A stretch of DNA of 62,636 bases, the filler included, from Candidatus Woesearchaeota archaeon (GTDB taxonomy: Archaea > Nanobdellota > Nanobdellia > Woesearchaeales > J072): the NCBI GenBank assembly GCA_003695265.1. It is 6 parts of 6 records of this genome, joined end to end, with 100 filler letters (N's around TTAATTAATTAA, not from the genome) between each part and the next. Parts side by side here need not be neighbours in the genome. Positions count along the whole stretch, not along the records: positions 1 to 24,561 come from RFII01000068.1; 5 more parts are not named here. The stretch is one strand, 5' to 3'. The position numbers and the translations under genes are program-made. How positions within the stretch are numbered: position 1 is the first letter of the stretch; each line of letters starts with the position of its first letter. The notes beneath the pieces were generated by a model that did not search any database, had not been told where the DNA came from, and saw only the letters and a list, made by a program, of their open reading frames with translations. Shown here in pieces: positions 8,235 through 53,356 of this stretch.

Positions 8235-9173
8235 TTATTCCCCTCTTAGAAACTGGTAAGTTACCATACTCTTTAGAAATTGGCGGGCAGGAGTATGATT
8301 GTGATATGTCCTGAAATTGCCAGAAACAATTGCTTGGCGCAATTCATTCCTTAATTCTTCTCCGACAGGCTCTTTGTCAAGAGAGAAGATGTTTCCAGAG
8401 CGCCCTATTTCCCTTCTTGTTCTGCTGTCAATTCCATGCGCATCAGAATTCGCCAAAGGCTTGCCGGGATATTCCTGCTGCACTAATTCATCGCTTATGA
8501 CCATCCAAGCAGCGTTATCAGAGACAAGGTCAACGCTCTCAACCTCTGGAAAAAGCTTCTCCCTAATAGCAACCCTTTCTTCTGGTTTTGCAAGCCTGAA
8601 CCTAAAAAAGCCAAACGGGCCATAAGGGTCATGAATGGTGAAAGGGTGAGCGCCTATGATTATTGCGTTGTGTTTTCTTGCCACGTCTAAGTATTCGTCA
8701 AGAGGCATTCCACTTTTCGCATGATCTGAGAATCCTTCATCGGGCATCAGTGCAAGAACGTCTAAGCCGCCGCTAACTCCATCCAATCTAACAGAAGTCT
8801 CGTAAGCTCCGACAAGAGTTATTTTTTTCCCTATTGCATCAACGCTAAGCGAAAGACCATAATCATGGCGATTCAGCAAGCAAAGGTATCCTGTGCTGTT
8901 TTGGAAAAGCCGCTTAACCCCAGAAAGATCATGTTGTTTTTTGCTAGTTGCGTGGCAGGTTACTGCAAGTATCCCAACATTGTTTGTTTTAGCAGCGTTT
9001 AATGTGTCAATAAGGTCATTCTCAGAATAGATGTAAGGATGAGCGTGTAGGTCAGCAATAATCTCTCCTGGCTTGAGCTCTGGCTGGCCTGACCTAACAG
9101 TATCCAAAATTGAGCCTAATGCTGTCTCTAAGCTATAACTTGTAATACCTCTCAAAAAATCTCTGAACCGCAT
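8235..9173 (-). CDS. PHP-family metal-dependent phosphoesterase
   Basis: DLHAH, AHP and NSDAH motifs. Confidence 0.75.
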   Translation of the reverse strand: MRFRDFLRGITSYSLETALGSILDTVRSGQPELKPGEIIADLHAHPYIYSENDLIDTLNAAKTNNVGILAVTCHATSKKQHDLSGVKRLFQNSTGYLCLLNRHDYGLSLSVDAIGKKITLVGAYETSVRLDGVSGGLDVLALMPDEGFSDHAKSGMPLDEYLDVARKHNAIIIGAHPFTIHDPYGPFGFFRFRLAKPEERVAIREKLFPEVESVDLVSDNAAWMVISDELVQQEYPGKPLANSDAHGIDSRTRREIGRSGNIFSLDKEPVGEELRNELRQAIVSGNFRTYHNHTPARQFLKSMVTYQFLRGE

Positions 9174-9355: not shown

Positions 9356-9508
9356 ATGGCTGTAGGTGTTACTGAAATCATAATTGTCCTTATAATAATC
9401 TTAATACTGTTCGGACCTAAAAAACTTCCACAGCTGGCAAGGTCGATAGGGGAGTCAATAAGGGAGTACAGGAAAGGGCTCTCAGGACAAAAGAAGCCAA
9501 AAGGCTGA
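9356..9508 (+). CDS. tatA: Twin-arginine translocase subunit TatA (50 aa, absent from ORF track)
   Basis: MAVGVTEIIIVLIIILILFGPKKLPQLARSIGESIREYRKG; RBS GGGGTG; directly upstream of tatC. Confidence 0.93.
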   Translation: MAVGVTEIIIVLIIILILFGPKKLPQLARSIGESIREYRKGLSGQKKPKG

Positions 9509-9513
9509 TTCTG

Positions 9514-10200
9514 GTGCAAAAGAGGGTCATCAAGCATTTGGAAGAGCTCAGGAGCAGGATAGTATTTGTGGTTACTTTCTTAATTCTGTTTTTCATACTT
9601 GGAACTTTGTTATCCCCAGTAATAATTAAGAGAATAATAAAGGATATGTCAATAAATGGTGTTCAATTAGTATCCTTGTCCCCATTAGAATTTATTTACA
9701 CTCAAATAAAAATTGGTCTCATAATAGGCTTTGCACTAACTTTCCCTTTATTAGTGTATCATGCAGCAAGGTTTATTAAGCCAGGCCTGAGGAAGAAAGA
9801 AACAGCGCTTTTAAGAACAATTCTGCCAGCCACAATCCTGTTGTTTGTTTTGGGCTTGGTGTTCTCCTATTTCATATTCTTAAAGATAAGCGTTGGTTTT
9901 CTGGCCAATCTTTCAAACATTGCAGGTATAAGCAATACGTGGAGCGTTGAAAGGTTTATTGGCTTTATTGTTGGAGTGTGTTTTTTTATCGGCCTGATAT
10001 TTGAGTTTCCTCTTGTCATGTGGGTTTTAGGCAGGTTAGGGCTGATAAGGGCTTCAGCATTGAAAAAGAAAAGAGCACACACATACGTTGGTGTGTTTAT
10101 TCTGGCAGCAATATTAACACCTCCAGACGCTGTTACCCAAATACTTATGGCTGTCCCTTTAATAATACTGTTTGAGATCAGCCTTTTGTTTGTAAAATAA
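9514..10200 (+). CDS. tatC: Twin-arginine translocase subunit TatC
   Basis: HLEELRSR, FIKPGL, FEFP, AAILTPPD motifs; about 6 TM. Confidence 0.95.
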   Translation: MQKRVIKHLEELRSRIVFVVTFLILFFILGTLLSPVIIKRIIKDMSINGVQLVSLSPLEFIYTQIKIGLIIGFALTFPLLVYHAARFIKPGLRKKETALLRTILPATILLFVLGLVFSYFIFLKISVGFLANLSNIAGISNTWSVERFIGFIVGVCFFIGLIFEFPLVMWVLGRLGLIRASALKKKRAHTYVGVFILAAILTPPDAVTQILMAVPLIILFEISLLFVK

Positions 10201-10201
10201 C

Positions 10202-11692
10202 TTATTCTTCCTCAAACACGAAAGCCTGGTAAGTGGAAACTTTTGTGGATGTGTCCTTCCAGCAGTCTTCTCTCATGCCTCCTTTCTTGCAGAGGCTTGT
10301 CAAGAACAATTCCTTGTCGGGAAGCTGTTCCCAAACTTGCGGCAAATAAGTGCTCTGCCTCATCCCATTCCTTAGAACAACGCCGTCAACCAAAGGCCTC
10401 AGCTTATTCTTCAAGTCTTCGCCAGAGCTGAATTCCAAAGGCTCTGGAACAGACAGCACAGAAATCTCAATCTTGATGTCGTCTAATTCGTCAGCCCTGA
10501 CAGGCAGAAACCTGCGGTCGTTCACAGCAGCACTGATAACATTGTCCATAACGCATTTGTAAAGCTCCTCTTGTGGAAGAATATGACCAATACATCCACG
10601 CAGATTGTAGTTTTTGTTGAGGGTTGTGAAGCAGCCCTGAATCTTTTTGAGGTTTGGAGAAAGCTCAGACTCATCAATAACAGGCTTTTCTCCAAGCCCA
10701 TAATAATAGTTAAGGGTGTCTCTGGCAAGCTTCAGAAGGAATTCCTGCTCATCCTTGGTAAGGGGCTCTTTTTTTGGTTCTGTGAAAACCATCGAGACAT
10801 AACTTACTGAGTTTTTGTAGTCGCCAGTAATATTTCCTGAAGTGTCATAGCTTATTAGCTGTGGAGTAATGTCCTCTCCTTGCAGCATGAAAAGAAGTGC
10901 TAAAACAGCGTGCCTTCCGCAGATTGTTGCGCCTGTTTCTGAGAGAAACTCTGCAAACCCTTCTGCGTCCTTTGCCTTGATTCTGTCAATTGCCAGCGAG
11001 TCTAAAAATTTGATGTTGTCTGAGACGTTTTCAGTGAATGGAATGTAACCGTACCTTGGGCCGTAATGAGTGAAGTCAGAACTCACAACAATCAATGTAT
11101 TGTTATCAACATATTTTTTCAGCGTTGAAGCAATTGAATTTATCTCATCAACAGTCGTTCTAGGCCCTATGAGGACAGGAATTATCTCAAAATTAGACAG
11201 AGCGTACTGCAGGAAAGGAAGCTCAATCTCAATAGAGTGCTCTTTTTTGTGGGCTTCATTATAAGAGTTAAACAGCGGCTCTGCAAGGAGTTGTTTTGTC
11301 TTGTCTGAAACCTTAACCAAACCAAGGGGCGTTTCGTAATGCGTGGCATTAGGTATTGACGCGCCGTCAAAAGAGGATGTGTGCGAAGGCCCAAGAATAA
11401 GGACAGTATTATAATCCTTCTTATGCTGGACAAGCTGCTTGAAAGCAGCTGCTGCAACTCTTCCTGAGAAGCGCCAGCCCGCATGAGGAACAATAATCGC
11501 CTTTATGTTTTCAAGACCGGCATCCTCAACATTATTAAAGTAATTGCTTAATGTTTTATTGATTTCCTCTTCACTATTAGGATACCAAGAGCCTGCAATA
11601 GCAGATTCTCTAACAACTTTTTTCTCTTCAACTACTTGTGTTTGGCAACCAAGCAAAACCATTAGCAAGAGAATAATAAGTATTTTTTTCAT
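10202..11692 (-). CDS. amrB: AmmeMemoRadiSam protein B (MEMO1) fused to protein A (AMMECR1), with lipoprotein signal
   Basis: AGSWYP, PHAG, GPSH, EHSIE, SSDFTHYG, TICG (MEMO); GCFTTL, LRGCIG, IEISVLS, TYLPQVW (AMMECR1); MKKILIILLLMVLLGC; ATGA overlap with amrS. Confidence 0.92.
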   Translation of the reverse strand: MKKILIILLLMVLLGCQTQVVEEKKVVRESAIAGSWYPNSEEEINKTLSNYFNNVEDAGLENIKAIIVPHAGWRFSGRVAAAAFKQLVQHKKDYNTVLILGPSHTSSFDGASIPNATHYETPLGLVKVSDKTKQLLAEPLFNSYNEAHKKEHSIEIELPFLQYALSNFEIIPVLIGPRTTVDEINSIASTLKKYVDNNTLIVVSSDFTHYGPRYGYIPFTENVSDNIKFLDSLAIDRIKAKDAEGFAEFLSETGATICGRHAVLALLFMLQGEDITPQLISYDTSGNITGDYKNSVSYVSMVFTEPKKEPLTKDEQEFLLKLARDTLNYYYGLGEKPVIDESELSPNLKKIQGCFTTLNKNYNLRGCIGHILPQEELYKCVMDNVISAAVNDRRFLPVRADELDDIKIEISVLSVPEPLEFSSGEDLKNKLRPLVDGVVLRNGMRQSTYLPQVWEQLPDKELFLTSLCKKGGMREDCWKDTSTKVSTYQAFVFEEE

Positions 11693-12861
11693 GCTTCCCA
11701 CACACCAGGAATCTTTTCTCCGCAGAACTTGCAGGAGCCGTTCTCAAGGTTGTTCTCTGTTATGGTGTAGCCCCTCCTGCCTATAACAACCCTGCCGCAT
11801 TTCGGGCAGTAAGTGCTTTCAGCCTTGTTCCCAGGAACATTGCCTATATAAACGAATTTAATGCCGGCGTCCATTGCTATTTCTCTTGCGTCCTTCAAAA
11901 CTGATATGGGAGTTGGGGGCAAATGAGTGAGCTTGTACATTGGAGTGAAGCGCGAGAAATGAAGGGGGTAGTCCTCGTAGCCGTTCTCAGCAAGCCAGCT
12001 GCACATCTCCCTTATCATGTCCAAATCATCAGTCCAGCTTGGAATAACAAGGTTGGTTATTTCAAACCACACTTTCTCCTCTTTCAGAACCTTGAAAGTG
12101 TTAAGGATCGGCTTTAGTGTTCCTGCGTTAAGCTCGTTGTAAATGCTGTTCTCAAAGCTTTTCAGGTCAACGTTAGCAGCATCGAGGTATTTTGCAAGGT
12201 CACGCAACGCCTCCTCGTTGATGTAGCCGTTAGTAACCCACACGTTCTTAATATTCTTTTCTCTAGCAAGTTTTGAAGTGTCATACATGTATTCATAAAA
12301 TGCTATTGGCTCAGAGTAAGTGTAGGCTATTGACTGGCACTGCTTCAGGAGGGCAGAATCAACAACTTTTTCTGGCATAAGGTCAATGTTCTTTGTCTCT
12401 TCCGGCTGGAACTGTGAGATGTCCCAGTTCTGGCAGTTAAGGCAGCGGAAATTGCAGCCCGCTGTGGCAATAGAAAACGCCTTGCTCTCAGGAAGGAAGT
12501 GAAACAAAGGCTTCTTCTCAATAGGGTCAATGTGGACAGCGCAAGGATTGCCATAAGCAAGAGTGTAAAGCTTGCCATTCATGTGCACTTTATCCCTGCA
12601 AAAGCTCCTGTCGCCCTCTTTCAAAATGCACTGGTGTGGGCAAATATTGCACTGCACGTTTTTGCCTAGCTTAGTGTAATGGTAAGCTTCCCTGCTCCAT
12701 TTCCAAAGCTCATCCGGAGCTCCGCCCTCAAAGACAGAATTGTCCAATTTCTTGCAGGCAGGAATGCCGAAAGCAAGCGCTCCCAAGCCAAGAGCAGCGC
12801 ATTTCAGGAAGGCCCTCCTGCTTATCCTCTTGTTAAGTATTTTCTCAAAGCCTTTTTCCAT
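11689..12861 (-). CDS. amrS: AmmeMemoRadiSam radical SAM enzyme with Tat signal peptide
   Basis: CNICPHQC, DPIEKKPLFHF, CNFRCLNCQNWDISQ, C-terminal CPKC..CKFC; likely start MEKG..SRRAFLK at 12861. Confidence 0.92.
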   Translation of the reverse strand: MEKGFEKILNKRISRRAFLKCAALGLGALAFGIPACKKLDNSVFEGGAPDELWKWSREAYHYTKLGKNVQCNICPHQCILKEGDRSFCRDKVHMNGKLYTLAYGNPCAVHIDPIEKKPLFHFLPESKAFSIATAGCNFRCLNCQNWDISQFQPEETKNIDLMPEKVVDSALLKQCQSIAYTYSEPIAFYEYMYDTSKLAREKNIKNVWVTNGYINEEALRDLAKYLDAANVDLKSFENSIYNELNAGTLKPILNTFKVLKEEKVWFEITNLVIPSWTDDLDMIREMCSWLAENGYEDYPLHFSRFTPMYKLTHLPPTPISVLKDAREIAMDAGIKFVYIGNVPGNKAESTYCPKCGRVVIGRRGYTITENNLENGSCKFCGEKIPGVWEA

Positions 12862-13088
12862 TTTCCAACCCTGTAATAAATCTGTATTCCTGGGTGGATT
12901 AATAAGAGTATGAAAGAGAAAACACTTATCGGCACTGATATGTGAAAGCTTTTTGACTGCTTTAACGGAACAAAACCAAAATATCCGAGCATGACGAATC
13001 CGGAAACAAAGTAAGCCAGCAGCACAAAAAAGAGGAGCCATGCTGCAACAGCGTCAATCTTTCTAACAAGTTTTCTTATAGCAACCAC
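12822..13088 (-). CDS. Small two-TM membrane protein
   Basis: 88 aa, two TM segments with His residues; fills the gap between the SpeE-like gene and amrS. Confidence 0.55.
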   Translation of the reverse strand: MVAIRKLVRKIDAVAAWLLFFVLLAYFVSGFVMLGYFGFVPLKQSKSFHISVPISVFSFILLLIHPGIQIYYRVGKWKKALRKYLTRG

Positions 13089-13143
13089 CCTTTTTTTTCC
13101 TATTATTTTTTTATTAATTAAACTCTTTCAGCGTATAAAAAAT

Positions 13144-15282
13144 TTATTGTTTTTTAGTAAACAAAACAATTCCGCTAAGCAGGTTGAGGAATGCTATGAA
13201 AAAGCAAACGCTAATAAGTCCGAATATTGGGATTAGGAAAGCGCTGACAAGCAAAGCGCCAAGAGACGCGCCCAAAAGGTCGGCGTTGTAGAGCTCTGCT
13301 GCCGTGGATGATATTTTTTTGAAGTGCAGCTTTGAAGCAAGCGGGAATTCCATTCCAGCCATCACAGCAATTATAAACGTGAGTACAGAGAACACGGCCT
13401 GGTTTGCTGCAAAGCCTGCACTGTGCTTTGCCAAATATAAAAGCGTAAAAGGAAGCATGACAGCATACAATACTATTGCAAATTCGAGCCTTATGAGATC
13501 ATTAATGTTTTTCTTTCTTAATTTCTTATTCATGTAAAACGAGCCTGCGGCAAGGCCGAGCATGAACATTGTTATTATCAACCCTATGATGTGGTAAACA
13601 TAACCGTATATTACCTGAAATGCTATTAGAAGCACGACCTCTAGCGAGGATGATGCGAAGCCCGTGGTGAATATTGCGAAGCTCACTGCCTTTAGCCTTG
13701 AGAGGAAGAATGCCATTAGCAAGATGATAATAATTATGAATAATGCGTAATTTGCTTTGAAGTGGCTCATCCAGTAAAGCAAATGGTAATAATACGTTAC
13801 AGGGCTGAAATCATGATTTACGCCCTCTTTTTCATCTATCGAGCTTGTTATTTGGCTTATCCTGTCAGGAGTAAACACTCCTTTAAGGTAATCCTCATTA
13901 ACGTAAACCGTTTGTACGCCTTTCTCTTTTATAAGCCTTGCAATGTCTGTGCTTAATTCTCCGTCAGATGCAATGAAGAAATTTTTTTCGCCTGGCAAGA
14001 CAATCACGTTTTTGAAATGTGTTTTCAGCGTGTTATAAACCACAGAGTTTAATTTGCGCGCCTCATCACTAATGTAATTAGCGGTTGAGATTAAGCTCAA
14101 GGAAACAACACCATCATCGCTCATCTTTTTCTTAAGCTCACCAAAGAATTCAACGGTGTAAAACCTGTTTATCTGCGCAGTGCTCGGATCAGGAAGGTCA
14201 ATTATCACAACATCATACTTTTTGTTTGTTTCTCTTACAAACATCCTAGCGTCCCTGTTTATTACGTTTATCCCCTCTAAAGATGAGGGTGTGTAAGCCC
14301 TTCCCAGAGCAATAATCTTTGGGTCGAGCTCAACATAATCAACATTTTCAACACCGTATTTTAGTATCTCACCTGTTGTCCCTGCTATGCCCCCTGAAAT
14401 CAAAAGAACGCTTTTTGGATTGTCATGCTGAACCATGGCGTAATGGACTGTTTCCTCATTGGCAATTGTGTTTTCTGTCGAGAACAATATCATTCCGTTC
14501 TCAAAGAAGTTTAACTGGCCTGATGTTCTTGTTACCACAATATTTCCGTAAGGAGAGTTTGTTTGCGTGACTAATTCCTGGTTCCTGAACTGCAGCTCTG
14601 TTGAAATTTTATTAAAGTCAATAATCACGAATAAAAAGGATATTACAAGCAGGGCGCTTACAAGATACTTGAATTTATTGATGAGAAATGCTAAGAGCAA
14701 AGCCGCAATAAGGTTAATAAACATTATGAAGAATATCATTTGGAAAGGGTTAAGGATGTGGATAAGCACAAAGCTGAATAGAAAGCCGCCGAGAATGTCT
14801 CCTATGTTGTCAATAAAGTACACCTTGCCAATTGACGCAGCATCATTCCTTGTTGAGAAAGCTGTGCAGAAGAGTGTGAGAAGAAAGCCTGATATAAGGC
14901 AGTAAGGCAGCAAGAGTATGAGGGAGCTGACAAAAACTTCCACTATGCCAACAAGGCTTCCAACAGGAAAAATAATGTTTTTTAAGGACCTTATCAGAAA
15001 AACTTGAATGAAAGGAATAAAAGCAACCAATACTTGAGAGAATATTATGAAGCTTATTTTTCTTTTTATTTTATCCGAGTATTTGCCAAAGTACGCTCCA
15101 AGACCTGTTAGTAAGAGCCAGTTCGCAAGTATTATCCCAAAAACGAGCTCGTTTCCGTAAAACACGCTCAAGAACTCCCTGATTAGTATTATTTGGGTGA
15201 TAACAGATGAAATGCCGAGCGCTGTTATTGAGTAAAACAAGAGTTTGCCCTTGTCCATCATGTAATGGTATAATTTAACCAA
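13144..15282 (-). CDS. Multi-pass membrane protein with central spermidine-synthase/methyltransferase domain (fused MFS/SpeE type)
   Basis: SPYGNI, VHYAM, LLISGG, VELDP, DAR, YDVVIIDLPDP, NRFYT flanked by TM blocks on both sides. Confidence 0.85.
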   Translation of the reverse strand: MVKLYHYMMDKGKLLFYSITALGISSVITQIILIREFLSVFYGNELVFGIILANWLLLTGLGAYFGKYSDKIKRKISFIIFSQVLVAFIPFIQVFLIRSLKNIIFPVGSLVGIVEVFVSSLILLLPYCLISGFLLTLFCTAFSTRNDAASIGKVYFIDNIGDILGGFLFSFVLIHILNPFQMIFFIMFINLIAALLLAFLINKFKYLVSALLVISFLFVIIDFNKISTELQFRNQELVTQTNSPYGNIVVTRTSGQLNFFENGMILFSTENTIANEETVHYAMVQHDNPKSVLLISGGIAGTTGEILKYGVENVDYVELDPKIIALGRAYTPSSLEGINVINRDARMFVRETNKKYDVVIIDLPDPSTAQINRFYTVEFFGELKKKMSDDGVVSLSLISTANYISDEARKLNSVVYNTLKTHFKNVIVLPGEKNFFIASDGELSTDIARLIKEKGVQTVYVNEDYLKGVFTPDRISQITSSIDEKEGVNHDFSPVTYYYHLLYWMSHFKANYALFIIIIILLMAFFLSRLKAVSFAIFTTGFASSSLEVVLLIAFQVIYGYVYHIIGLIITMFMLGLAAGSFYMNKKLRKKNINDLIRLEFAIVLYAVMLPFTLLYLAKHSAGFAANQAVFSVLTFIIAVMAGMEFPLASKLHFKKISSTAAELYNADLLGASLGALLVSAFLIPIFGLISVCFFIAFLNLLSGIVLFTKKQ

Positions 15283-15304: not shown

Positions 15305-15628
15305 TTATTGGAGAACACGCTCGATCTTTTCTTTTAAGACAGGCTTTGAAACAGAGCCGGTTATCCTTCCAATCTCCTTTCCTTCTTTCAGCATGACAAT
15401 GCACGGAACGCTCATCACACCGAACTTGCTTACCAATTCTGGAGAGTGCTCAGCGTTTAAGCTGGCAAATTTGAATTTTCCATTATACTCAGAACTCAAT
15501 TCCTCAAAAATAGGGGCTAATGCCTTGCAAGGACCGCACCAAGAAGCCCAGAACTTCAAAATAACAGGAACTTCAGATGATTTCACTTCACTCTCAAAGT
15601 TTTCTGTATTAACTTTTACAACACCCAT
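15305..15628 (-). CDS. trxA: Thioredoxin
   Basis: WASWCGPCK active site. Confidence 0.92.
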
Positions 15629-20532: not shown

Positions 20533-21705
20533 TCAAAAATTCTTAATGTACCTGTCAAGGATTTCCTGCGCCGCTCTTTTAGTGTCGGGAATAACTTGGG
20601 AAGTCGTGTCAATATAGGCAACTTTTGTTCCGCGGTCCTCGAATATTCTTGCAAAGTCAGGGCTTCTGTACCTTTCGACTAATGCTGCTTGGAATTCAGC
20701 AGTCTCAAAAATGCAGTTGTCCTGCTTTTCCCTACTGCTCATTCTTCTCATTATCTCTTCAGGATCGCACGTCGTTATTATCAGCAGTCCGGGAGGATTA
20801 TTCAATGCAAGCCTGTTTCCCGCAAGAGACATAACTTTTTCTTCAGACAATTCTTCGCCCTGGAATTGTGCCTGGATTATTTGGTAGGCTAATGAGGTTG
20901 AAACACCCCTTTCCACAAAGCCCGCTTTTTCCTGGTTTGGAATCCAGACTCTTCTGTAAAGGGTTGCCCTGTCAGCTGAAAAGGTTTCCGCGACTTCCTC
21001 TGCTGTGTATCTCCTGGAGTTTTGCGCTATTTTCTCCCTTCTTATGTCATTGCCTACTCCTGCATAGGTTGGCTCGCATGCAAGGATTACATCAAAAGGC
21101 TCTAGCAGCCATTCTTCCGGATAAACCTTGTGCTCTTTCTGGAAGCTGCGCATGTCAAAAACTGTTTGCCCTCTTTCTCTTGCAAGACTGCCGAAATGAT
21201 CAATTATTGTGCCCTTGCCAGAAACATCTGTGCCGTCAACCATTACAAGGTTTTTTAAGACGTTTGAGCCCATCCTCAAGTCAAAGAATCGCTGAATAAC
21301 TTCAGGAAGCGTTCTGTCAGAATAAGTTCTTATCATAAGATAAGGGCTGGGAGAATCCTCTAAAAGCCAGCTTGTTCTCATTCCTTCAGGGTAAAGGAGA
21401 AGTGTCGGAATTTTTTTCTCTCTTGTCGCGATTGCTATCTCGTATCCCTTGCCGTCGCTGGGGTAAGCGTTTAAAGCAACCAGGCAATCAGCTCTGCCAA
21501 GAAGCCATTCGTCAATGTCGCGGTCGTGAATATTAACGCCTCTGACCCTGTTTCTTGCTTCAAACTCGCGAACATCTTTTCTTCCAATATGCCTTGTTAA
21601 AACGTTGCCGTATTTTGAGAGAAGCCTTATAACTCTCCTTGCAAGATCATTGTCGCCTTTTGCGCTGACTGGAGCGGCAAAGTAAATGTTTGGTCTTTCT
21701 TTCAT
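20533..21705 (-). CDS. Fusion: nucleoside 2-deoxyribosyltransferase/DNPH1-like N-hydrolase + thymidylate kinase
   Basis: N-term IYFAAP..IHDRD..W..ADCLVA..PSDGKGYE; C-term DGTDVSGKGT P-loop, EPT, ADR, ERGVSTSLAYQ. Confidence 0.8.
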   Translation of the reverse strand: MKERPNIYFAAPVSAKGDNDLARRVIRLLSKYGNVLTRHIGRKDVREFEARNRVRGVNIHDRDIDEWLLGRADCLVALNAYPSDGKGYEIAIATREKKIPTLLLYPEGMRTSWLLEDSPSPYLMIRTYSDRTLPEVIQRFFDLRMGSNVLKNLVMVDGTDVSGKGTIIDHFGSLARERGQTVFDMRSFQKEHKVYPEEWLLEPFDVILACEPTYAGVGNDIRREKIAQNSRRYTAEEVAETFSADRATLYRRVWIPNQEKAGFVERGVSTSLAYQIIQAQFQGEELSEEKVMSLAGNRLALNNPPGLLIITTCDPEEIMRRMSSREKQDNCIFETAEFQAALVERYRSPDFARIFEDRGTKVAYIDTTSQVIPDTKRAAQEILDRYIKNF

Positions 21706-23372
21706 TTATGCAAACCTGGTTCTTCATGTTTTATTCTTATGATATCTTCGAGCCACGGAAGCACTTTTGTCACTTCTCTATGAACGTTATGCATGTCCTG
21801 ATGATAGGAAAAGTGCCTTCCAGGGCCTGTCCTTAATTCTTCCATGTAAGCAAGCTCTGCCAAGTCCATTGTGATGTGCAATGGAAACATTGTTGCCATT
21901 GGAATAGCATATTGGTAAGCGAAAGGGAACCTGTCTCTTGCTTTTTCTTCAAACTGCATTGCCTTCTCGCCAACTTCCTCAAACAAAGGATTTAATCCCA
22001 TCTCAAGAGCTGAGTCAGGAATGTAAATGCCGTGCCTTAAAGTGTACCTTTCTTCTGTCTTAACGCACCTTCTGTGCCTTCTCAAGTCTCTCAAAGCTCC
22101 AACATCTGTCTTTATTTCAACGCCGATTTGGACATTCCTAAATGCCTCATCTAAATGCTCGTTTTTTTCTCCCCTTTTCTCAACAGTCCTTTTGAGCAGA
22201 GCAACTTTTTGGTCATAAGGCATTGAAGATGCTAATTTTCTGAAGTGCTCTAATGAGCCGTGATTCAACCGCTTCATTATGAAAGCAACAACCTCGTCAA
22301 GCGCGTCATGATTAATCATTGTTAGGCGCGCATACTTTCCTGAGTCTGGCTCAAAATGGTTTTCAGCATTAAAAGCTCCATCATAACCGGCTAGCATGTC
22401 AGCATAGTAAGGGTCTCTTCCAGCGTATTTTATCAGCGAAGGAGAAAGCTGTTTTGCAGCTATTTCAAAAAGCTTACCGAAGATTTGAACTTCCTGCAAT
22501 GGGTGAGAAAGCCATTTGCTTATGTTTAGCTCCTCTTCCCTGCCGCTCATAACAAAATAGATGTTTGTCATTGTTGCTTGAGGCAACAGGTAGCGCACAA
22601 CGTCTAAAGCTTGGCCTTGAATCATTCTGTCATAATCAGCTTTCTGGCCTCTGAGCGTTTTCTTGTTTGTGTGGCCCTCCTCGACGAACCTTTCGAAAGG
22701 CATTTTGCTAATGAACCACCTTTTTGCAATTGGCAGGGCTTTTTCATAGGCCTGCATCATAAACCGGACAGTATCCTCGTATTCGCTTCCTAAGTCAGAA
22801 GCCATTATTTCTGGATCGCGGTAAAAAGTTTCAGAATCAAAATGAACATACCTCGTTGACTGCTCAATAAATGATATTAAAGGGTCGAAAGCAAGCTCTC
22901 GCGCAACAAGCTGGCTTATGTTGTTGGCGACAAACCTGTCCTTTACTGTGTCGCCAACGCTTTTATGTCCGTATCTCCCAAACCAAAACTCAAAGAACCT
23001 CTGACTTTTTTTAAGGCCTGACTCCAAAAACCTGCTCGGGTCTCTTGAGAAAGGCGCTAAAACAAAAAAATTCCAGAAAAACTGCAGGTTTCCCTTGATC
23101 TTGTCAATTCTGCCTGCCGCGCTTGCCTGACCTGACGCAAAATCAATAAGATGGTCTCTTACATCCCGAGGATTCCTGCTGAAATAGGAGCCTGCTGCGC
23201 CGCCAGTTTCTCCCCTAACAGGATGCAGCAATCCATAAACAGGCGCGTCAGGATGAGTTACAAAATATTTTAATGCGCGCCTCTGAAGCCAAGACCATTT
23301 TGAGCTGCGCTCACTATCACGGATTATTTTTTGGGCAATTCTTTCTAATTCGTCTTCAGGAATAAGGCTCAT
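21702..23372 (-). CDS. thyX: FAD-dependent thymidylate synthase, tandem-domain type
   Basis: YGHKSV, EQSTRY, RYLLP in domain 1; DLRRHR and ELRT in domain 2. Confidence 0.85.
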   Translation of the reverse strand: MSLIPEDELERIAQKIIRDSERSSKWSWLQRRALKYFVTHPDAPVYGLLHPVRGETGGAAGSYFSRNPRDVRDHLIDFASGQASAAGRIDKIKGNLQFFWNFFVLAPFSRDPSRFLESGLKKSQRFFEFWFGRYGHKSVGDTVKDRFVANNISQLVARELAFDPLISFIEQSTRYVHFDSETFYRDPEIMASDLGSEYEDTVRFMMQAYEKALPIAKRWFISKMPFERFVEEGHTNKKTLRGQKADYDRMIQGQALDVVRYLLPQATMTNIYFVMSGREEELNISKWLSHPLQEVQIFGKLFEIAAKQLSPSLIKYAGRDPYYADMLAGYDGAFNAENHFEPDSGKYARLTMINHDALDEVVAFIMKRLNHGSLEHFRKLASSMPYDQKVALLKRTVEKRGEKNEHLDEAFRNVQIGVEIKTDVGALRDLRRHRRCVKTEERYTLRHGIYIPDSALEMGLNPLFEEVGEKAMQFEEKARDRFPFAYQYAIPMATMFPLHITMDLAELAYMEELRTGPGRHFSYHQDMHNVHREVTKVLPWLEDIIRIKHEEPGLHK

Positions 23373-23474: not shown

Positions 23475-24503
23475 ATGATTATTGGAATAACAGGTTTTTT
23501 AGGGGCAGGCAAAGACACTGTTGCCGAGTATTTGATGAGTCTTGGCTTTCACCACATCTCGCTTTCTGACATGATTAGGGACGAGCTAAGAAAAAAAGGA
23601 TTAAGCCTGAGCAGGGAAAACCAGCAAAAGATGGGCAACAGCCTGAGGGAGAAGTACGGCAGCGCCATTCTTGCCCAGAGAGCTCTGAAGAAGATGAGCT
23701 GGGACAAAAACTGGGTTGTGACAAGCATAAGGACTCCTGCAGAAGTCGAAACGCTTAAGCAGACAGAGAAGTTTGTCCTCATATTCGTTGATGCGCCTAT
23801 AAGAGTGAGGTGGGAAAGAATAAAGGCAAGAAGAAAAGAGGGTGATCCTCACAGCTTTTCAGAGTTCAAAACATTAGAAGAGCGCGAATTAAGAGGAAAA
23901 GGGTCAGAGCAGCAGCTTATTGCTGTAAGAGAATGCGCTGAAATAATCTTGAAGAACGATTTAACAATTGAGGCTTTGCACAAGAAGATTGATAGGATTA
24001 TTGCTAAGCTAAAGAAAAAAAAGGAGTTCTTAAGGCCGACTTGGGACGAGTATTTCTTAGAGGTCATGGATGCAGTGGCAAGAAGAGCAACCTGTGACCG
24101 AGGCAGAAGCGGCGCTGTTATAGTGCGGAACAAGCAGATACTTACAACAGGCTATGTGGGAAGCCCTGTCGGAATTGAGCACTGCGACGAGGTGGGGCAT
24201 TTGATGCAGACAGTCCACCATAGCGATGGAAGCGTAAGCAAGCATTGTGTGAGAACAACGCATGCCGAGCAAAACGCGATCTGCCAAGCAGCAAAATATG
24301 GGATTAGCATTGACGGCGCGACTCTTTATTGCAAGATGACGCCGTGCTTTGCATGCGCGAAAATGATAGTCAATTCAGGAATAAAAAGGGTTGTGTGCAA
24401 GAAAGCATATCATCGCGGAAAAGACAGCGAAGAACTGTTTAAGAAAGCGAATGTCAAGCTGGAAATATTAGATAAAACACCTGAAAAATATATTAACCAA
24501 TAA
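23475..24503 (+). CDS. Fusion: P-loop (d)NMP/dephospho-CoA kinase-like domain + dCMP deaminase
   Basis: GFLGAGKDT; RPTWDEYF, RATC, HAEQNAI, PCFAC. Confidence 0.88.
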   Translation: MIIGITGFLGAGKDTVAEYLMSLGFHHISLSDMIRDELRKKGLSLSRENQQKMGNSLREKYGSAILAQRALKKMSWDKNWVVTSIRTPAEVETLKQTEKFVLIFVDAPIRVRWERIKARRKEGDPHSFSEFKTLEERELRGKGSEQQLIAVRECAEIILKNDLTIEALHKKIDRIIAKLKKKKEFLRPTWDEYFLEVMDAVARRATCDRGRSGAVIVRNKQILTTGYVGSPVGIEHCDEVGHLMQTVHHSDGSVSKHCVRTTHAEQNAICQAAKYGISIDGATLYCKMTPCFACAKMIVNSGIKRVVCKKAYHRGKDSEELFKKANVKLEILDKTPEKYINQ

Positions 24504-48409: not shown

Positions 48410-49147
48410 TTAAGAAACATGAGAATACCCTTTTGATTCTATTTCATGAGCCAGCACGTCGCCCTTTGCTTCCTTGGTAATCCTGCCTTCTTTTATTACG
48501 CTGACTTTGTCAACTTTAATGTATTTTAATATCCTGTTGTAATGAGTTATGAGCAAGCATCCCATGCCGGTGCTCTTTTTTATTGTGTTAATGCCGTTTG
48601 CTATTGTTTTGAGGGCGTCAATGTCAGTGCCGCTGTCTGTCTCGTCAAGTATTGCGAATTTCGGCTGGAGAACAGCTAATTGCAGGATTTCTGATTTCTT
48701 CTTCTCACCTCCTGAGAAGCCCTCGTTCAAGTACCTTCTTCCAAATTTTTCGTCTATTCCAAGGAGTTTCATCTTCTCTTTCAATAATTTGTGAAAGCTG
48801 ACAACGTCAAGCTTTTCTTCCTTTAAGTTGTTGTATGCTGTCCTTAAGAAATTGCTTATAGTTACTCCGGTCACTTCACATGGGTATTGGAATGAGAGGA
48901 ATAAGCCAAGCTTTGCTCTCTCATCAGCGCTCATCCCAGTAATGTCTTTGCCGTTCAGCAGGATTTTTCCTTTTTCTACCTTGTACTTTTGATTGCCCAT
49001 TATAACGTTTGCTATTGTGCTCTTGCCGGAGCCGTTCGGGCCCATGAGGGCATGTACTTTCCCGGACTCTATTTCCAGATTAACGCCTCTCAGTATTTTT
49101 TTTCCGTTAACGCTTACATGCAGGTTTTTTAATTGCAGCTTAGCCAT
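48410..49147 (-). CDS. sufC: Fe-S assembly ATPase SufC
   Basis: GPNGSGKST, FQYP, FSGGEKK, LDETDSG, ITHY. Confidence 0.95.
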   Translation of the reverse strand: MAKLQLKNLHVSVNGKKILRGVNLEIESGKVHALMGPNGSGKSTIANVIMGNQKYKVEKGKILLNGKDITGMSADERAKLGLFLSFQYPCEVTGVTISNFLRTAYNNLKEEKLDVVSFHKLLKEKMKLLGIDEKFGRRYLNEGFSGGEKKKSEILQLAVLQPKFAILDETDSGTDIDALKTIANGINTIKKSTGMGCLLITHYNRILKYIKVDKVSVIKEGRITKEAKGDVLAHEIESKGYSHVS

Positions 49148-49149
49148 GA

Positions 49150-49551
49150 TTATTCACCCATTTTCTCTATTATTTTTTTCAAGGCCCTCCAGGAAAGTAG
49201 GCCGCATTTCATCCTCACAACACCTAAAGGCACGCCTATCATTTCTAAAATATCGTCTTTGCCAAGCTTTTCTAATTCAGCAAAGGCCATTCCTTTTATT
49301 TTTTCAGTGAGCATTGACGTTGCTGCCATGCTGATTGCGCACCCTTTCCCGACAAACTTCGCGTCAATTACTTTTCCGTTTTCGACTTTAACATAAAGCT
49401 TTACCTCGTCTCCGCACAGGGGATTTGATTCTTCCTGGCAGAAGCTGTTTTTTATTTCGCCGAAGTTTCTAGGGTGCTTGTAATGGTCAAGGATGTTTTC
49501 CTTGTATATTTCGTCTTCGCCAACCCAATCAGGATTTGTGTCCTCGCTCAT
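49150..49551 (-). CDS. sufU: SufU/IscU-type scaffold
   Basis: ILDHY..PRN, NPLCGD, GCAIS, RMKC. Confidence 0.9.
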   Translation of the reverse strand: MSEDTNPDWVGEDEIYKENILDHYKHPRNFGEIKNSFCQEESNPLCGDEVKLYVKVENGKVIDAKFVGKGCAISMAATSMLTEKIKGMAFAELEKLGKDDILEMIGVPLGVVRMKCGLLSWRALKKIIEKMGE

Positions 49552-50732
49552 TTGAAAACCTCTTTGACCTTTTTAATGGCGGCAACTGCCTTGTCTATGT
49601 CTTCTTTTGTGTTGTACAAGTATATTGAGATTCTGCAAACGCTGCTCTCTTTCAAGACGCTTTTGATGAAAGGCATGGCGCATAGATGGCCCGTCCTTAT
49701 CGCAACATTGCACCTGCTCATTATTGTGGAAACGTCATGTGGGTGAACTCCTTTTATGTTAAAGCTTATTATTCCGCTGTCTCCGTTGCTGTAGATTTTG
49801 ATTCCTTCAATTTTTTTCATCTGCTCAAGCGCGTAATCCTTTAGAGCGTCTATGTGCCTTCTTATCCTCTTGATTCCAATGTTATTTATGTAGTCGATTG
49901 CTTTTCCAAGCCCAATGGCTGATGCTATTGGTGGTGTTCCAGCCTCAAACTTCCAGGGTATGTCGTTCCATTTTGAGTCCTTAAAGCTTACTTCTGAAAT
50001 CATGTCCCCGCCGTAAAGGAAAGGGCTTATTCTTGCCAATAATTCTTTTTTCCCGTAAAGCACGCCGACACCTGTTGGGCCTAGCATTTTGTGGCCGGAG
50101 AAAGCAAGGAAGTCTACGTCATCATCCTTGACATTAATTCCTAAATGCGGGACGCCTTGCGCCCCGTCAACGACTAACAAGGCGTTTTTATTGTGGGTAA
50201 TCCTGCTTATTTCCTTTAAGTCGTTTATTCCGCCTGTGACGTTGCTCATCTGGGTGACAGAGACTATTTTGGCGTCTGAGTTTCTTAACAACTCTTTCAA
50301 GTGCTCAGTATTTACCCTGCCGTTCTGTGTCTTTGCGTAGCTTGCTTTTCCGAGCTGCTGCCATGGAACCAGGTTGCTGTGGTGCTCTAACTCGCTGAGA
50401 ATCACTTTTCTTCCGAAGTCTCTTGTTAGTGAGTAAGCGAGCAGGTTTAAGGATTCTGTCGTGCTCTTGGTGAATATTATTTCTTCAGGCTCAGCGTTTA
50501 TGAAATCAGCTATTTTCCTGCGAGCCTCCTCATATTCAAGCGTTGCTTTTTCGCCGAGCTTGTGGATTGCCCTGTGAACGTTAGCATTGTAGTTTAGGTA
50601 ATATTCCTTTATTGCTTCAACAACTGGTTTTGGCGTCAGGCTTGTCGCTCCGCTGTCTAAGTAAGCCGTGTTTTTTAGGACTGGAAAATCCTTTCTTATC
50701 TTCTCAATATCAAATTCTTGTTTTTTCTTCAT
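49548..50732 (-). CDS. sufS: Cysteine desulfurase, SufS type
   Basis: YLDSGAT, ANVHR, EHHSN, SGHKM, RTGHLC. Confidence 0.93.
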   Translation of the reverse strand: MKKKQEFDIEKIRKDFPVLKNTAYLDSGATSLTPKPVVEAIKEYYLNYNANVHRAIHKLGEKATLEYEEARRKIADFINAEPEEIIFTKSTTESLNLLAYSLTRDFGRKVILSELEHHSNLVPWQQLGKASYAKTQNGRVNTEHLKELLRNSDAKIVSVTQMSNVTGGINDLKEISRITHNKNALLVVDGAQGVPHLGINVKDDDVDFLAFSGHKMLGPTGVGVLYGKKELLARISPFLYGGDMISEVSFKDSKWNDIPWKFEAGTPPIASAIGLGKAIDYINNIGIKRIRRHIDALKDYALEQMKKIEGIKIYSNGDSGIISFNIKGVHPHDVSTIMSRCNVAIRTGHLCAMPFIKSVLKESSVCRISIYLYNTKEDIDKAVAAIKKVKEVFK

Positions 50733-51571
50733 TTCCATTTCTCAGCAATAGTTTTCTTCACGCTTTCTTTAAGGCTAGTGTTGCTGAGTTTCTCGATAAA
50801 CGGGCTGAAGAACCCTTCTATTATTAGTTTTTTTGCTGTTTTTTCGTCCAAGCCGCGGCTTTTCATGTAAAACAGCTTTTCCTCATCAACCTGGCTTATG
50901 GTGGCTCCGTGACTGCAAGCAACATCATTGTTCTCAATCTCAAGATTTGGAACCGCCTCAACTGCTGCGTCTTCGCTGAGGAGTATTGTGTCAGATTTTT
51001 GGTAGCCTTCGCAGCCAACAGCATTTGGGTTTATCCTTATAAGGCCTGTGTGAAAAGCCCTGCTTTTGCCGTTCAGGACGATTTTGGCTAAGATGTCGCT
51101 CTTGCTTTTATCGGCTTTGTGGATTACCTCGTTGTTAATCTTAAAAACGCTTTTTCCGCTGCCGAAAACTATGCTGAAGCTGCTGCAATTGCTTCCTTTT
51201 CCCTTAAGGATTGTTTTAGTTTCAGAATTTGTTTTTGCCTCGCACAAATAGCAGTTTAGCCAGTTCAGCGCAGCGTTTTTACTAATTATTCCTGTCTTGT
51301 TTGAAAAGCTTTCAATCTCTTTTTTGTAGTTGTGGATTGAAATGTAATTAACCACAGAGTTTTCGCCAACGATTAATTCTATTTTTTGATTTGTGAAGCC
51401 TTTTGAAAGTTCTGTAATCCTGGCTGAGCTGTTCTTTCCCACGCTCACTTTAATGCTGCCCTTTCCCTGAAAAATTATTTTTATTTCTTCTTTGGAATTG
51501 TCAGGAATTCCGAGCAAATAATCGTTTCCTGTGTTTTCAACACGCACTCTGTCGCTGGAAATTATGTTCAT
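50729..51571 (-). CDS. sufD: SufD-like protein
   Basis: PNLEIENNDV.CSHGAT..LFYMKSRG; between sufB and sufS. Confidence 0.88.
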   Translation of the reverse strand: MNIISSDRVRVENTGNDYLLGIPDNSKEEIKIIFQGKGSIKVSVGKNSSARITELSKGFTNQKIELIVGENSVVNYISIHNYKKEIESFSNKTGIISKNAALNWLNCYLCEAKTNSETKTILKGKGSNCSSFSIVFGSGKSVFKINNEVIHKADKSKSDILAKIVLNGKSRAFHTGLIRINPNAVGCEGYQKSDTILLSEDAAVEAVPNLEIENNDVACSHGATISQVDEEKLFYMKSRGLDEKTAKKLIIEGFFSPFIEKLSNTSLKESVKKTIAEKWK

Positions 51572-52974
51572 CCTACAGTGCCCTCCATTTCCAGCTCGAT
51601 TAGCTTGTTAAGCTCAACAGCGTACTCTAACGGCAGCTGCTTAACTATCGGCTCTATGAAGCCGCTGACAACCATTTGAATTGCCTGCTCCTCGCTAAGC
51701 CCCCTCGACATTAAGTAAAATATTTCGTCTTCACCTATTTTTCCAACTTTTGCTTCGTGCCCAACATCGACTTTGTTAGTGTTTATTCTCATAATCGGAA
51801 AAGTGTTTGAAACGCTTTTTTTGTCAAGTAGGAGTGCGTCGCATACTACGCTGCACTTGCTGTTCTTCGCATTCTTTGTTATCTTAACCAATCCTCTGTA
51901 AGTTGAGATTCCTCCGTCTTTGCTTATACTTTTTGCCTTTATCGTGGAAGTTGTGTTTGGAGCGACATGAATAACTTTGCTTCCTGTGTCCTGGTTTTGG
52001 CCGCGGCCTGCAAAAGCTATTCCCAACGAGTCTGACCTTGCGCCTTCTCCAACCAACACGCTGCACGGGTAGAGCATAGTGCATCCTGAGCCCATATTTC
52101 CATTAACCCATTCTATAGTGCCGTTTTCTTCAACAATAGCCCTTTTTGTGTTAAGGTTGAAAGTGTTTTTGCTCCAGTTCTCAACGCTTGAGTACCTTAC
52201 CCTAGCATTTTTGTGGACGAAGATTTCGACACAGCCGGCATGCAATGCGCTTTCCTCGTACTGCGGCGCTGAGCAGCCTTCTACGTAATGAACCTCGCTT
52301 CCCTCATCAGCTATTATTAGTGTGTGCTCAAACTGACCTCCTCTTTGGTAATTCATCCTGAAATAAGCTTGTAGGGGCACTCTCACTTTGACATTCTTTG
52401 GTACATAAATGAAAGTGCCGCCGCTCCACACAGCAGCATGCAACATTATGAACTTGTGGTCTGTTACAGGAATGCATTTTGTCATGAAGTATTTCTTCAC
52501 AAGCTCGGGGTATTTTTGGACTGCTGTGTCCATGTTCTCAAATATTATGCCTTGATTTTCCCATTCCTTCTTCAAGTTGTGGTATGCCATGTCAGAATCA
52601 AACTGAAAGCCTGCTCCACTCAAGCTCCTTTTTTCTGCTTCTGGTATTCCAATCCTCTCGGCAGTTTTTCTTATTTCCTCGGGCAAATCTTCCCATCTTT
52701 TTGACTCTTTTGTTCCAGGCTTGACGTAATAATGGATTTTGTTAAGGTCTAGTTTTTCCTTTACCTCTTTAGGCCCCCATGATGGCAGTGGTGTTTTGTT
52801 GAACCAATTCAGGCCTTGCAGCCTTTTCTTAAGCATCCATTCCGGCTCATTCTTGTCCTTAGAGATAAATCTTACTAATTCCTCAGTTAGCCCCGGCTTT
52901 GCAACGTACTTGTTTTTGATAATTGCTGCATCGTCGTATCTGCTCCTGTCAATCTTGAAGCTTTTCATCCCCAT
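51568..52974 (-). CDS. sufB: Fe-S assembly protein SufB
   Basis: WSGGTFIY, QFEHTLI, EGCSAP, QDTG, FYLMSRG, EMEG. Confidence 0.95.
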   Translation of the reverse strand: MGMKSFKIDRSRYDDAAIIKNKYVAKPGLTEELVRFISKDKNEPEWMLKKRLQGLNWFNKTPLPSWGPKEVKEKLDLNKIHYYVKPGTKESKRWEDLPEEIRKTAERIGIPEAEKRSLSGAGFQFDSDMAYHNLKKEWENQGIIFENMDTAVQKYPELVKKYFMTKCIPVTDHKFIMLHAAVWSGGTFIYVPKNVKVRVPLQAYFRMNYQRGGQFEHTLIIADEGSEVHYVEGCSAPQYEESALHAGCVEIFVHKNARVRYSSVENWSKNTFNLNTKRAIVEENGTIEWVNGNMGSGCTMLYPCSVLVGEGARSDSLGIAFAGRGQNQDTGSKVIHVAPNTTSTIKAKSISKDGGISTYRGLVKITKNAKNSKCSVVCDALLLDKKSVSNTFPIMRINTNKVDVGHEAKVGKIGEDEIFYLMSRGLSEEQAIQMVVSGFIEPIVKQLPLEYAVELNKLIELEMEGTVG

Positions 52975-53356
52975 GTTTTCTTCCTCCAAAACACTTGATC
53001 AGCTCAGGGCAGCATTCTTTTGGAATGTCTGAGAACTGCTTGTGCAATTTACACATGATTTTTGTGTTTCTTATGATTCTTAACAGCCGCTGCATTTCCC
53101 TCAAATAAGATAATTTGTCCTTAATCAGACTGGCTGATTTTTTGATTTCTTTTTGGATTGAGTCATCAAAACTGATTTTGTTACCTCTTTTTCCGCTCAG
53201 GTACTGGCTGACAGCAGCCTTGTCAATTGAGAAAAGCTCGGCTATTTCTTTCTGCTTCATGCCATTGTTTTTCATATTAATAGCAAGATTCCTTCTTAAA
53301 GCAGGCATTATGTAATATACTTCTATTTCTTGTGGCTGCAGTAATATTGAACCCAT
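52949..53356 (-). CDS. HTH transcriptional regulator heading the SUF operon, Cys-rich tail
   Basis: PQEIEV..PALR, QKEIAELF..AAVSQYLSGKRG; CKLH..CC..C. Confidence 0.82.
   Translation of the reverse strand: MGSILLQPQEIEVYYIMPALRRNLAINMKNNGMKQKEIAELFSIDKAAVSQYLSGKRGNKISFDDSIQKEIKKSASLIKDKLSYLREMQRLLRIIRNTKIMCKLHKQFSDIPKECCPELIKCFGGRKHGDEKLQD

Follow-up and report, generated by a model that had tools for sequence, protein, structure and literature searches.

A putative cell-surface radical SAM system with its own Tat translocase in a Woesearchaeota archaeon

Radical SAM enzymes are regarded as cytoplasmic, because they need S-adenosylmethionine (SAM), a low-potential electron and protection from oxygen. 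Why, then, does one of them, the AmmeMemoRadiSam enzyme AmrS of a Candidatus Woesearchaeota archaeon (GCA_003695265.1), begin with a twin-arginine leader and lie in a cluster with genes of the twin-arginine translocase (Tat)? The window, that is, the whole stretch of DNA analysed here (62,636 nucleotides), consists of six contigs joined through N runs, and all six genes of the system stand on the first of these (1-24561, contig C16 of genome G000). From leader conservation and gene co-occurrence, AmrS is very probably exported to work outside the cytoplasm, and it is on balance probable that the six genes encode a radical SAM machine of the cell surface, equipped with a SAM supply, an electron conduit and a translocase of its own. 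The features concerned, with lengths in amino acids (aa), are the following.

9356..9508, plus strand: tatA, 50 aa (TIGR01411, 67.6 bits against a cut-off of 53.9; PF02416, E 1.7e-17)
9514..10200, plus strand: tatC, 228 aa (TIGR00945, 163.7 bits against a cut-off of 132.7; PF00902, E 2.3e-55)
10202..11692, minus strand: Memo-AMMECR1 fusion (AmrB-AmrA), 496 aa (TIGR04336, 244.6 bits; TIGR04335, 192.4 bits against a cut-off of 99)
11645..11692, minus strand: Sec/lipoprotein-type signal of the Memo-AMMECR1 fusion, 16 residues ending in LLGC (read from the sequence)
11689..12861, minus strand: AmrS radical SAM enzyme, 390 aa (TIGR04337, 363.3 bits against a cut-off of 220)
12754..12861, minus strand: twin-arginine leader of AmrS, residues 1-36, SRRAFLK plus h-region (pattern scans and conservation)
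12822..13088, minus strand: two-helix membrane protein, 88 aa, with His49 and His65 (alignment of 11 sequences, sub-cut-off Pfam matches in relatives, atlas, homodimer model)
13144..15261, minus strand: 14-helix MFS-fold transporter with an inserted SpeE-fold domain, 705 aa (NF037959, model, structural search)
13756..14613, minus strand: SpeE-fold domain of that transporter, residues 217-502, predicted to face outward (positive-inside alternation, residue counts, available part of PMC3725402)

The leader of AmrS reads S-R-R-A-F-L-K, followed by 15 uncharged residues. Two pattern scans of our own were run on the genome, a strict one giving 3 candidates and a relaxed one over 1086 non-redundant open reading frames (ORFs) giving 22 rows; the full twin-arginine consensus was found in AmrS only, and an inventory of Tat substrates thus holds one clear consensus leader. 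Among 25 leader-bearing relatives, the first arginine and the phenylalanine are kept in 25/25 and the second arginine in 23/25 (lysine in 2), which upholds the twin-arginine motif and h-region described in the first-pass annotation of this DNA. The lipobox-like cysteine assigned to AmrS in the same annotation has to be given up: IPAC fits no lipobox pattern, and the position is a cysteine in 1/25 leaders, the window's own. AmrS is probably anchored by an uncleaved leader rather than lipidated, and the other 24 leaders likewise have the look of uncleaved anchors. An in-frame ATG further upstream, at 13041, was discarded as the start, since a frame from there would span the small gene and the AmrS of relatives begins close to the RR motif; beginning at one of the downstream TTG or GTG codons would drop the conserved leader.

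A wider view is given by 80 AmrS loci (62 bacterial, going by record title, and 18 archaeal), which were retrieved with the window AmrS as query and are therefore enriched for its clade rather than a census. An RR leader is seen in 33 of them and a KR or RK one in 26; 8 have a hydrophobic leader that lacks RR, another 8 have none in frame, and 5 could not be scored. The bacterial loci come mostly from anaerobic lineages having a periplasm, the leaders of Cloacimonadota and Nitrospirota finish in AxA-type cleavage sites, and the closest named relatives of the window AmrS include Nanoarchaeota and Woesearchaeota records. Seven loci (L036, L039, L040, L041, L044, L076 and L077) bear a Sec-like hydrophobic leader without twin arginine on AmrS, and three of the seven have a DsbD-type membrane protein nearby. 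Tandem paralogues, two or three AmrS copies with RR leaders on some and plain hydrophobic ones on others, were seen in L031, L036, L039 and L052, the last with two AmrS units within one ORF of ~850 aa.

The case for export is carried above all by a census of 301 genomes of the order, in which tatC was called with a profile cut-off and AmrS leaders were taken from the best 150 of 227 matches, the remainder scoring lower. An AmrS-like gene is present in 199/301 genomes, tatC above cut-off in 26/301, and an AmrS with an RR leader (23) or RK leader (2) in 25/301. All 25 of the latter possess tat genes (tatC in 23, and tatA at a contig end in the other two), and 23/26 tatC genomes carry a leader-bearing AmrS. 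The carriers are spread over 19 families, 11 of which also include a genome with only a short AmrS and no tatC. Fisher's test returns p 5e-29 for this co-occurrence, a value that is overstated since kin are not independent. Two genomes, G129 and G206, are unpublished; the counts without them are 21/23, and the contrast within family f130 rests on G129. Left out of the 25 was G187, in which a contig end truncates the clade AmrS and tat genes were not found (assembly 86% complete). In a second draw of 201 genomes of the phylum, partly overlapping the first, tatC occurs in 8, and the sole new one, G379, has an RR-AmrS, a NapH-like gene, a Memo-AMMECR1 fusion and tatAC together.

Adjacency of tatAC to the system, whose conservation the first-pass annotation had asked about, is kept in the archaeal relatives: tatC adjoins a system gene in 15/23 co-carrying genomes and lies elsewhere in 8, and it is nearby in 8/18 archaeal and 0/62 bacterial loci of the 80. 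In the window, the tatC and Memo-AMMECR1 stop codons of the two convergent transcription units are 1 nt apart, just as first described, and both tat genes score above cut-off; tatA has one copy in the genome by tblastn and tatC a single match. Judging from gene content, the Tat pathway appears to be kept in these small archaea mainly for AmrS export, which is what that annotation had supposed of this Fe-S enzyme. A translocase retained for one substrate, with none seen where the leader has been lost, is strong genomic evidence for real export.

Such a loss is found in G253 (95% complete), whose clade AmrS begins at its catalytic body (L162:5801-8429) and is nested between two leader-bearing genus mates with support of 98-100. 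The tree was made with FastTree only, its root was not inferred, and the short-AmrS outgroup does not form one side of a branch, so that local nesting is claimed and not a single origin; archaeal and bacterial AmrS sequences interleave in it. In G253, tatA, tatC, the MFS orthologue and a redox partner were each looked for and none was found; among the matches listed it has one AmrS only, and this enzyme may possibly have returned to a cytoplasmic job. Leader conservation, co-occurrence with tat genes and this joint loss together lend comparative support to the membrane-tethered extracytoplasmic radical SAM pathway that had been proposed for the locus.

Leaders can also be detached. All five seemingly leaderless Nitrospirota loci (L026, L027, L029, L032 and L034) have, just after the enzyme gene, a gene of 43-46 aa (for example L027:1368-1505 and L032:2364-2504) that supplies the first strand lacking in AmrS together with RRxFL, an h-region and an AxA-type site. 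The split enzyme is a candidate for piggyback Tat export through strand complementation. The leaderless appearance of L019 is due to a frameshift.

The partner of AmrS bears an export signal as well. The N-terminus of the window Memo-AMMECR1 fusion is a basic-hydrophobic signal with LLGC at residues 13-16, to be compared with the LAGC-like lipobox consensus in the available part of PMC6098224. Among the 54 Memo homologues whose start is complete, a hydrophobic leader is present in 52 and a lipobox-like end in 22, in line with the Sec lipoprotein signal read there at first pass; 49/54 are fused to AMMECR1, and four of the remaining five are truncated by contig ends. Both partners look catalytically intact. 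The fusion aligns with human MEMO1 (E 7e-33) and PH0010, the Memo metal-site residues are kept over 58 fusions (His 57/58, His 57/58, Asp 58/58, His 58/58, Cys 52/58), and RGCIG and DxRF, which follow the RGChG/DxRa definition in the available part of PMC2034487, are intact in 58/58. AmrS carries CxxxCxxC, invariant in 78 sequences, plus cysteine clusters at its N- and C-terminal ends, and its model (predicted local distance difference test, pLDDT, 96.6) has 3c8f as best fold match with Z 22.8, the next match reaching 16.7. The AmmeMemoRadiSam trio and the fused form of Memo and AMMECR1 were noted by Balaji and Aravind (2007; available part of PMC2034487), who suggested that the AMMECR1 cysteine bears an organic radical and put forward RNA base modification, itself a prediction.

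Where would an exported AmrS obtain SAM? The gene at the head of the run encodes a membrane protein for which homologue N-termini favour ATG 15261 as the start (705 aa) over TTG 15282 (712 aa). It reaches 69 bits against a cut-off of 40 with NF037959, 'fused MFS/spermidine synthase', and stays below the cut-offs of the equivalogs PRK00811 (114/260 bits), PRK03612 (198/472) and TIGR00417 (96/249.55). An alignment of 48 homologues gives 14 helices, and the Lys/Arg alternation over these sequences places both termini inside and a 286-residue soluble domain after helix 7 outside, so that the predicted answer to the topology question raised for the SpeE domain is an outward location; a weak hydrophobic peak at 97-115 is a loop and the start of helix 4 in the model (pLDDT 90.7). 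The membrane part shows the two pseudo-symmetric six-helix bundles of the MFS fold and matches VMAT2 (9kqa; Z 29.5, root-mean-square deviation (rmsd) 3.4, 338 aligned), the majority of the top 50 rows are MFS carriers, and further fold matches include SotB, NorA, FLVCR and ENT1, whereas the soluble domain matches spermidine synthase (1uir; Z 28.6). The MFS fold was found only by full structural search; the Foldseek rows shown held SpeE-fold matches alone. Conserved polar sites in the membrane part are symmetric (Q23/Q549, Y148/Y658 and D151/D661), the buried D151 and D661 being acidic in 48/48 homologues.

The soluble domain keeps the adenosyl-binding E311 in 47/48 and D337 in 48/48. The residue following GGG, an acid where decarboxylated SAM (dcSAM) is selected, is acidic in 0/48 and isoleucine (Ile292) in the window protein, and position 295 is threonine in 25/48, the window included. 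According to the available part of PMC3725402, that acid binds the amine of dcSAM and repels the carboxylate of SAM, and the first Asp of DxxDP binds the cofactor amino group; aminopropyl transfer by Datura spermidine synthase is lost with D103I, and D103I combined with Q79T and V106T yields SAM-dependent putrescine methyl transfer. Because the selecting acid is absent in 48/48 and its replacement is fatal to aminopropyl transfer in the Datura enzyme, the domain probably has a SAM-type rather than a dcSAM-type site and would bind SAM without being a spermidine synthase. At the first position of DxxDP, whose Asp we take to act as a base on putrescine, 17/48 homologues have Asp and 24/48 have Asn, the window copy keeping DLPDP, and the upstream Tyr is absent in 48/48; since this Asp is Asn in half of the family, a catalytic role of the domain is weakened. 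Of the earlier view that a SpeE-like protein supplies or handles a SAM-derived substrate, the SAM handling is thus supported, whereas the spermidine synthase identity gives way to an MFS-fold transporter. That it supplies SAM to AmrS is, in our judgement, an even call.

Strong orthologues of the MFS-SpeE protein occur in 26/301 genomes, namely 24 of the 25 carriers plus the fragmented G001 and G003. A tblastn search of the genome with the window protein found no separate spermidine synthase. An AdoMet decarboxylase domain at G000:C72:10671-11594 shares one ORF with another C-terminal part, presumably deoxyhypusine-synthase-like. At L050:1969-4446, an MFS-SpeE protein has an extra N-terminal membrane segment with two His 14 residues apart, a fusion resembling the small protein of the window, with no Pfam match at 1e-5.

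Electrons would be the second requirement. The 88-aa protein shares two glycines and two histidines with its homologues, H49 and H65 being invariant in 11/11 rows, which were gathered partly by the two-His pattern (10 of them were first found without it). The two histidines are 14-16 residues apart on one membrane helix, as in di-haem cytochrome b and DUF4405; relatives match DUF4405, Sdh_cyt and Ni_hydr_CYTB, all below cut-off, and the window copy matches none of these. The first atlas match is cytochrome b561-like (0.90). A homodimer model with two copies and two haems scored 0.69 against 0.00 for the best of 3 controls, the haem not being scored; runs agree in 100% of contacts, and pLDDT is at least 84. 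The score mark is met by 20/30 solved pairs and 1/23 single chains, and likeness to solved helical bundles may produce such a pass. Relatives have a polytopic Fer4_5 (NapH/MauN-like) protein in place of the small protein: among the 25 carriers, a NapH-like partner occurs in 15, the two-His protein in 3 and both in 0, strong matches outside the 25 being confined to G001 and G003. In individual bacterial loci, the system adjoins a gene for a multihaem cytochrome c or for a DsbD-type membrane protein. The exchange of unrelated redox proteins in the same slot argues for a need of transmembrane electrons, and the small two-helix protein is likely to be their conduit.

The genome itself (1.06 Mb, 94.6% complete) has the provisions that an exported AmrS would call for, namely MetK, SufBD and a membrane pyrophosphatase. 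A search of it for ATP synthase found none, and the membrane H+/Na+ pyrophosphatase (G000:C94:11366-12943) is the likely source of the gradient that drives Tat. A Suf-type Fe-S assembly cluster with two SufBD genes, a class-V aminotransferase and an ABC ATPase lies at 48413-52989 of the window, on a different contig.

These parts can be assembled into one scheme. AmrS would gain its [4Fe-4S] cluster in the cytoplasm, where Suf genes are available, exit folded through TatA-TatC, and stay anchored by its leader; Memo-AMMECR1 would leave by Sec and be held beside it by a lipid or helix anchor. The MFS-fold protein could export SAM, or swap SAM for 5'-deoxyadenosine or methionine, driven by an ion gradient, and its outward SpeE-fold domain would keep SAM at the surface. 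The two-His homodimer, or the NapH-like Fe-S protein in relatives, would pass single electrons across the membrane and reduce the AmrS cluster. Resembling the activating enzyme of pyruvate formate-lyase (PFL), AmrS might then take hydrogen from a protein or peptide, most likely its own partner, where the radical would be carried by the invariant cysteine in the RGCIG motif of AMMECR1, or else a surface protein; activase-like chemistry of this kind would hold SAM demand low. The radical-bearing AMMECR1, together with the Memo metal site, would finally modify or repair a surface substrate common to bacteria and archaea. Protein-radical chemistry by AmrS is a tentative and rather doubtful part of this scheme, and the complete outside apparatus, with a Tat-exported activase, a dedicated SAM exporter, an interchangeable electron wire, radical-bearing AMMECR1-Memo and a Tat pathway nearly only serving it, has slightly less than an even chance of being right. 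Since carriers range from archaea to diderm bacteria and their envelopes differ widely, a substrate that is a protein or a small molecule seems to fit better than a lineage-specific lipid or wall polymer. No conserved neighbour naming the substrate was found in a scan of 72 of 121 candidate flanking ORFs, one row of which is the N-terminal part of an MFS homologue.

Several observations weigh against this surface machine. The 26 KR or RK leaders among the 80 loci depart from the RR motif, and two Bacteroidota loci (L018 and L022) show no leader in any frame. Three tatC genomes lack a leader-bearing AmrS. In one of these, G001, the MFS and small genes stand where a contig ends, and a different RR protein is encoded beside tatA; the other two are G046 and G219. 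A search for hidden leaders in four genomes with two weak AmrS matches found every match beginning at query residue 57 or later. No MFS orthologue was found in the carrier G297, and neither redox partner in 7/25 carriers. HemB was not found in the window genome at its stated completeness, so the haem would be scavenged or the histidines of the small protein bind something else. In G253, Memo-AMMECR1 retains its N-terminal helix beside the leaderless AmrS; as only the partner keeps a helix, the two would be on opposite sides of the membrane, unless the locus is decaying or rerouted. As observations in their own right, the RR protein of G001 (L171:1075-1812, 245 aa, consensus twin-arginine leader, directly beside tatA-tatC) represents a second kind of Tat substrate in the order, and the tatC genes of L172 (G046) and L174 (G219) are divergent.

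Which other explanations could account for the same genes? The leader might only tether AmrS to the inner face of the membrane, or be vestigial, with tatAC carried along by linkage. SAM and low-potential reductants are located in the cytoplasm, no periplasmic radical SAM enzyme was found in the literature searched, and the leaderless AmrS copies of G253 and the two Bacteroidota look intact. Such a cytoplasmic system is nevertheless very unlikely, as the co-occurrence persists in the 8/23 genomes with tatC away from the system, AxA-type cleavage sites close the Cloacimonadota and Nitrospirota leaders, the Memo partner has a lipobox-like signal in 22/54 homologues, and a detached leader is retained as a separate gene. 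If export is granted, the apparatus could serve salvage or catabolism, the SpeE-fold domain acting as a SAM-dependent N-methyltransferase or capturing substrate and the MFS part importing an amine or nucleoside product of AmrS and Memo-AMMECR1. Ile292 and Thr295 match the D103I and V106T changes that turn Datura spermidine synthase into a putrescine N-methyltransferase (available part of PMC3725402), the Memo superfamily is derived from a nucleoside phosphorylase/hydrolase fold (available part of PMC7694686), amine, choline and nucleoside transporters are among the MFS fold neighbours, and scavenging fits a 1-Mb genome in which no ATP synthase was found. We nonetheless hold this salvage pathway to be unlikely: the substitution of the first DxxDP Asp and the lack of the upstream Tyr speak against a methyltransferase, the origin of SAM on the outside is left unexplained, and the top fold matches are exporters and H+ antiporters (VMAT2, SotB, NorA), though fold does not fix direction.

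Two further proposals are highly improbable. An aminopropyltransferase, adding dcSAM-derived groups to a surface molecule that AmrS and Memo-AMMECR1 would then tailor, has on its side the SpeE fold, the AdoMet decarboxylase domain in the genome and the DLPDP of the window copy; that decarboxylase is encoded elsewhere in the genome, however, PRK03612, PRK00811 and TIGR00417 remain far under cut-off, and the dcSAM-binding acid is missing in 48/48, a change whose equivalent, D103I, abolished spermidine synthase activity (available part of PMC3725402). The suggestion that surface radical chemistry of a DPANN cell is directed at the envelope of a host found nothing pointing to it. A patchy accessory of small archaea (25/301) with signs of lateral spread would suit such a role, but 62/80 loci are bacterial, mostly of anaerobes with a periplasm in which the enzyme could not reach another cell, many carriers are free-living anaerobic bacteria, and adhesin, toxin and secretion genes are not among the conserved neighbours.

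How does the putative surface system relate to those already known? All three AmmeMemoRadiSam models (TIGR04335, TIGR04336 and TIGR04337) are above cut-off, catalytic motifs are intact and the genes are coupled: the AmrS stop and the Memo-AMMECR1 start overlap as ATGA, and the 88-aa gene overlaps the AmrS start by 40 nt. It differs from that trio in the export signals on both proteins and in the accompanying MFS-SpeE fusion, membrane redox protein and tatAC. The genome also has a short leaderless AmrS (C43:6943-7995, 41% identical to the window AmrS) and a stand-alone AMMECR1 (C83:2374-2958), so that the window system is a paralogous branch; no second Memo was found in the genome, the exported fusion carrying the sole copy. 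The closest solved match to AmrS is PflA (3c8f; profile E 5.9e-17; rmsd 2.4, 226 aligned), a PFL-activating enzyme, which abstracts hydrogen from a protein. Identity is 20%, however, AmrS has extra cysteine-rich domains at both ends and an export leader, TIGR02493 at 59.5 against 231.75 bits excludes it from that family, and no glycyl-radical enzyme is among the conserved neighbours. With spermidine synthase and putrescine N-methyltransferase, the membrane protein shares the SpeE fold and adenosyl-binding residues, and NF037959 is above cut-off; in contrast to spermidine synthase, it lacks the dcSAM-selecting acid, its domain sits between two MFS halves with a predicted outside location, and its gene keeps company with AmrS, not with polyamine genes. 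A last comparison is with metalloenzymes that leave through Tat and receive electrons from a membrane donor (NapH/MauN-type Fe-S proteins, cytochrome b subunits), which are respiratory oxidoreductases. Cofactor loading inside, Tat export and a neighbouring membrane redox partner (Fer4_5 matches) would be shared with these; unlike them, an exported AmrS requires the cytoplasmic co-substrate SAM besides electrons.

No report of an exported radical SAM enzyme was found in the literature searched, of which Burroughs et al. 2019 formed no part and may mention secreted versions. The exported AmrS branch is not described in the available parts of PMC2034487, PMC4075521, PMC7159879, PMC7694686, PMC3725402, PMC6098224, PMC10924467 and bioRxiv 10.64898/2026.08.21.746120. 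The new part consists of the compartment and three support modules, the core trio being the AmmeMemoRadiSam system already known.

Around the six genes, PolD and MCM are encoded in the window as archaeal markers; together with the ATP synthase that was not found and the named relatives of AmrS, they suggest a DPANN archaeon. A thioredoxin (WCGPC) at 15305-15628, on the same strand and directly upstream, was rejected as a member of the system, with no homologue in the 80 loci or other fetched regions. Divergent from tatA is a PHP-like metallohydrolase of 312 aa (8235-9173) with a weak NF038032 match, and at 23475-24503 a gene that joins a P-loop kinase-like domain and a dCMP/cytidine deaminase domain runs divergently to one with a ThyX domain (21702-23372).

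Memo and AMMECR1 are conserved to humans and linked to disease, and we know of no reaction for either. If the surface radical SAM machine is real, it yields a candidate exporter for SAM and gives the uncharacterised MFS-SpeE family a role. An exported branch speaks against RNA as its own substrate and would offer a handle on the question of the Memo/AMMECR1 reaction, for which the five-gene cassette would provide an expressible and assayable unit.

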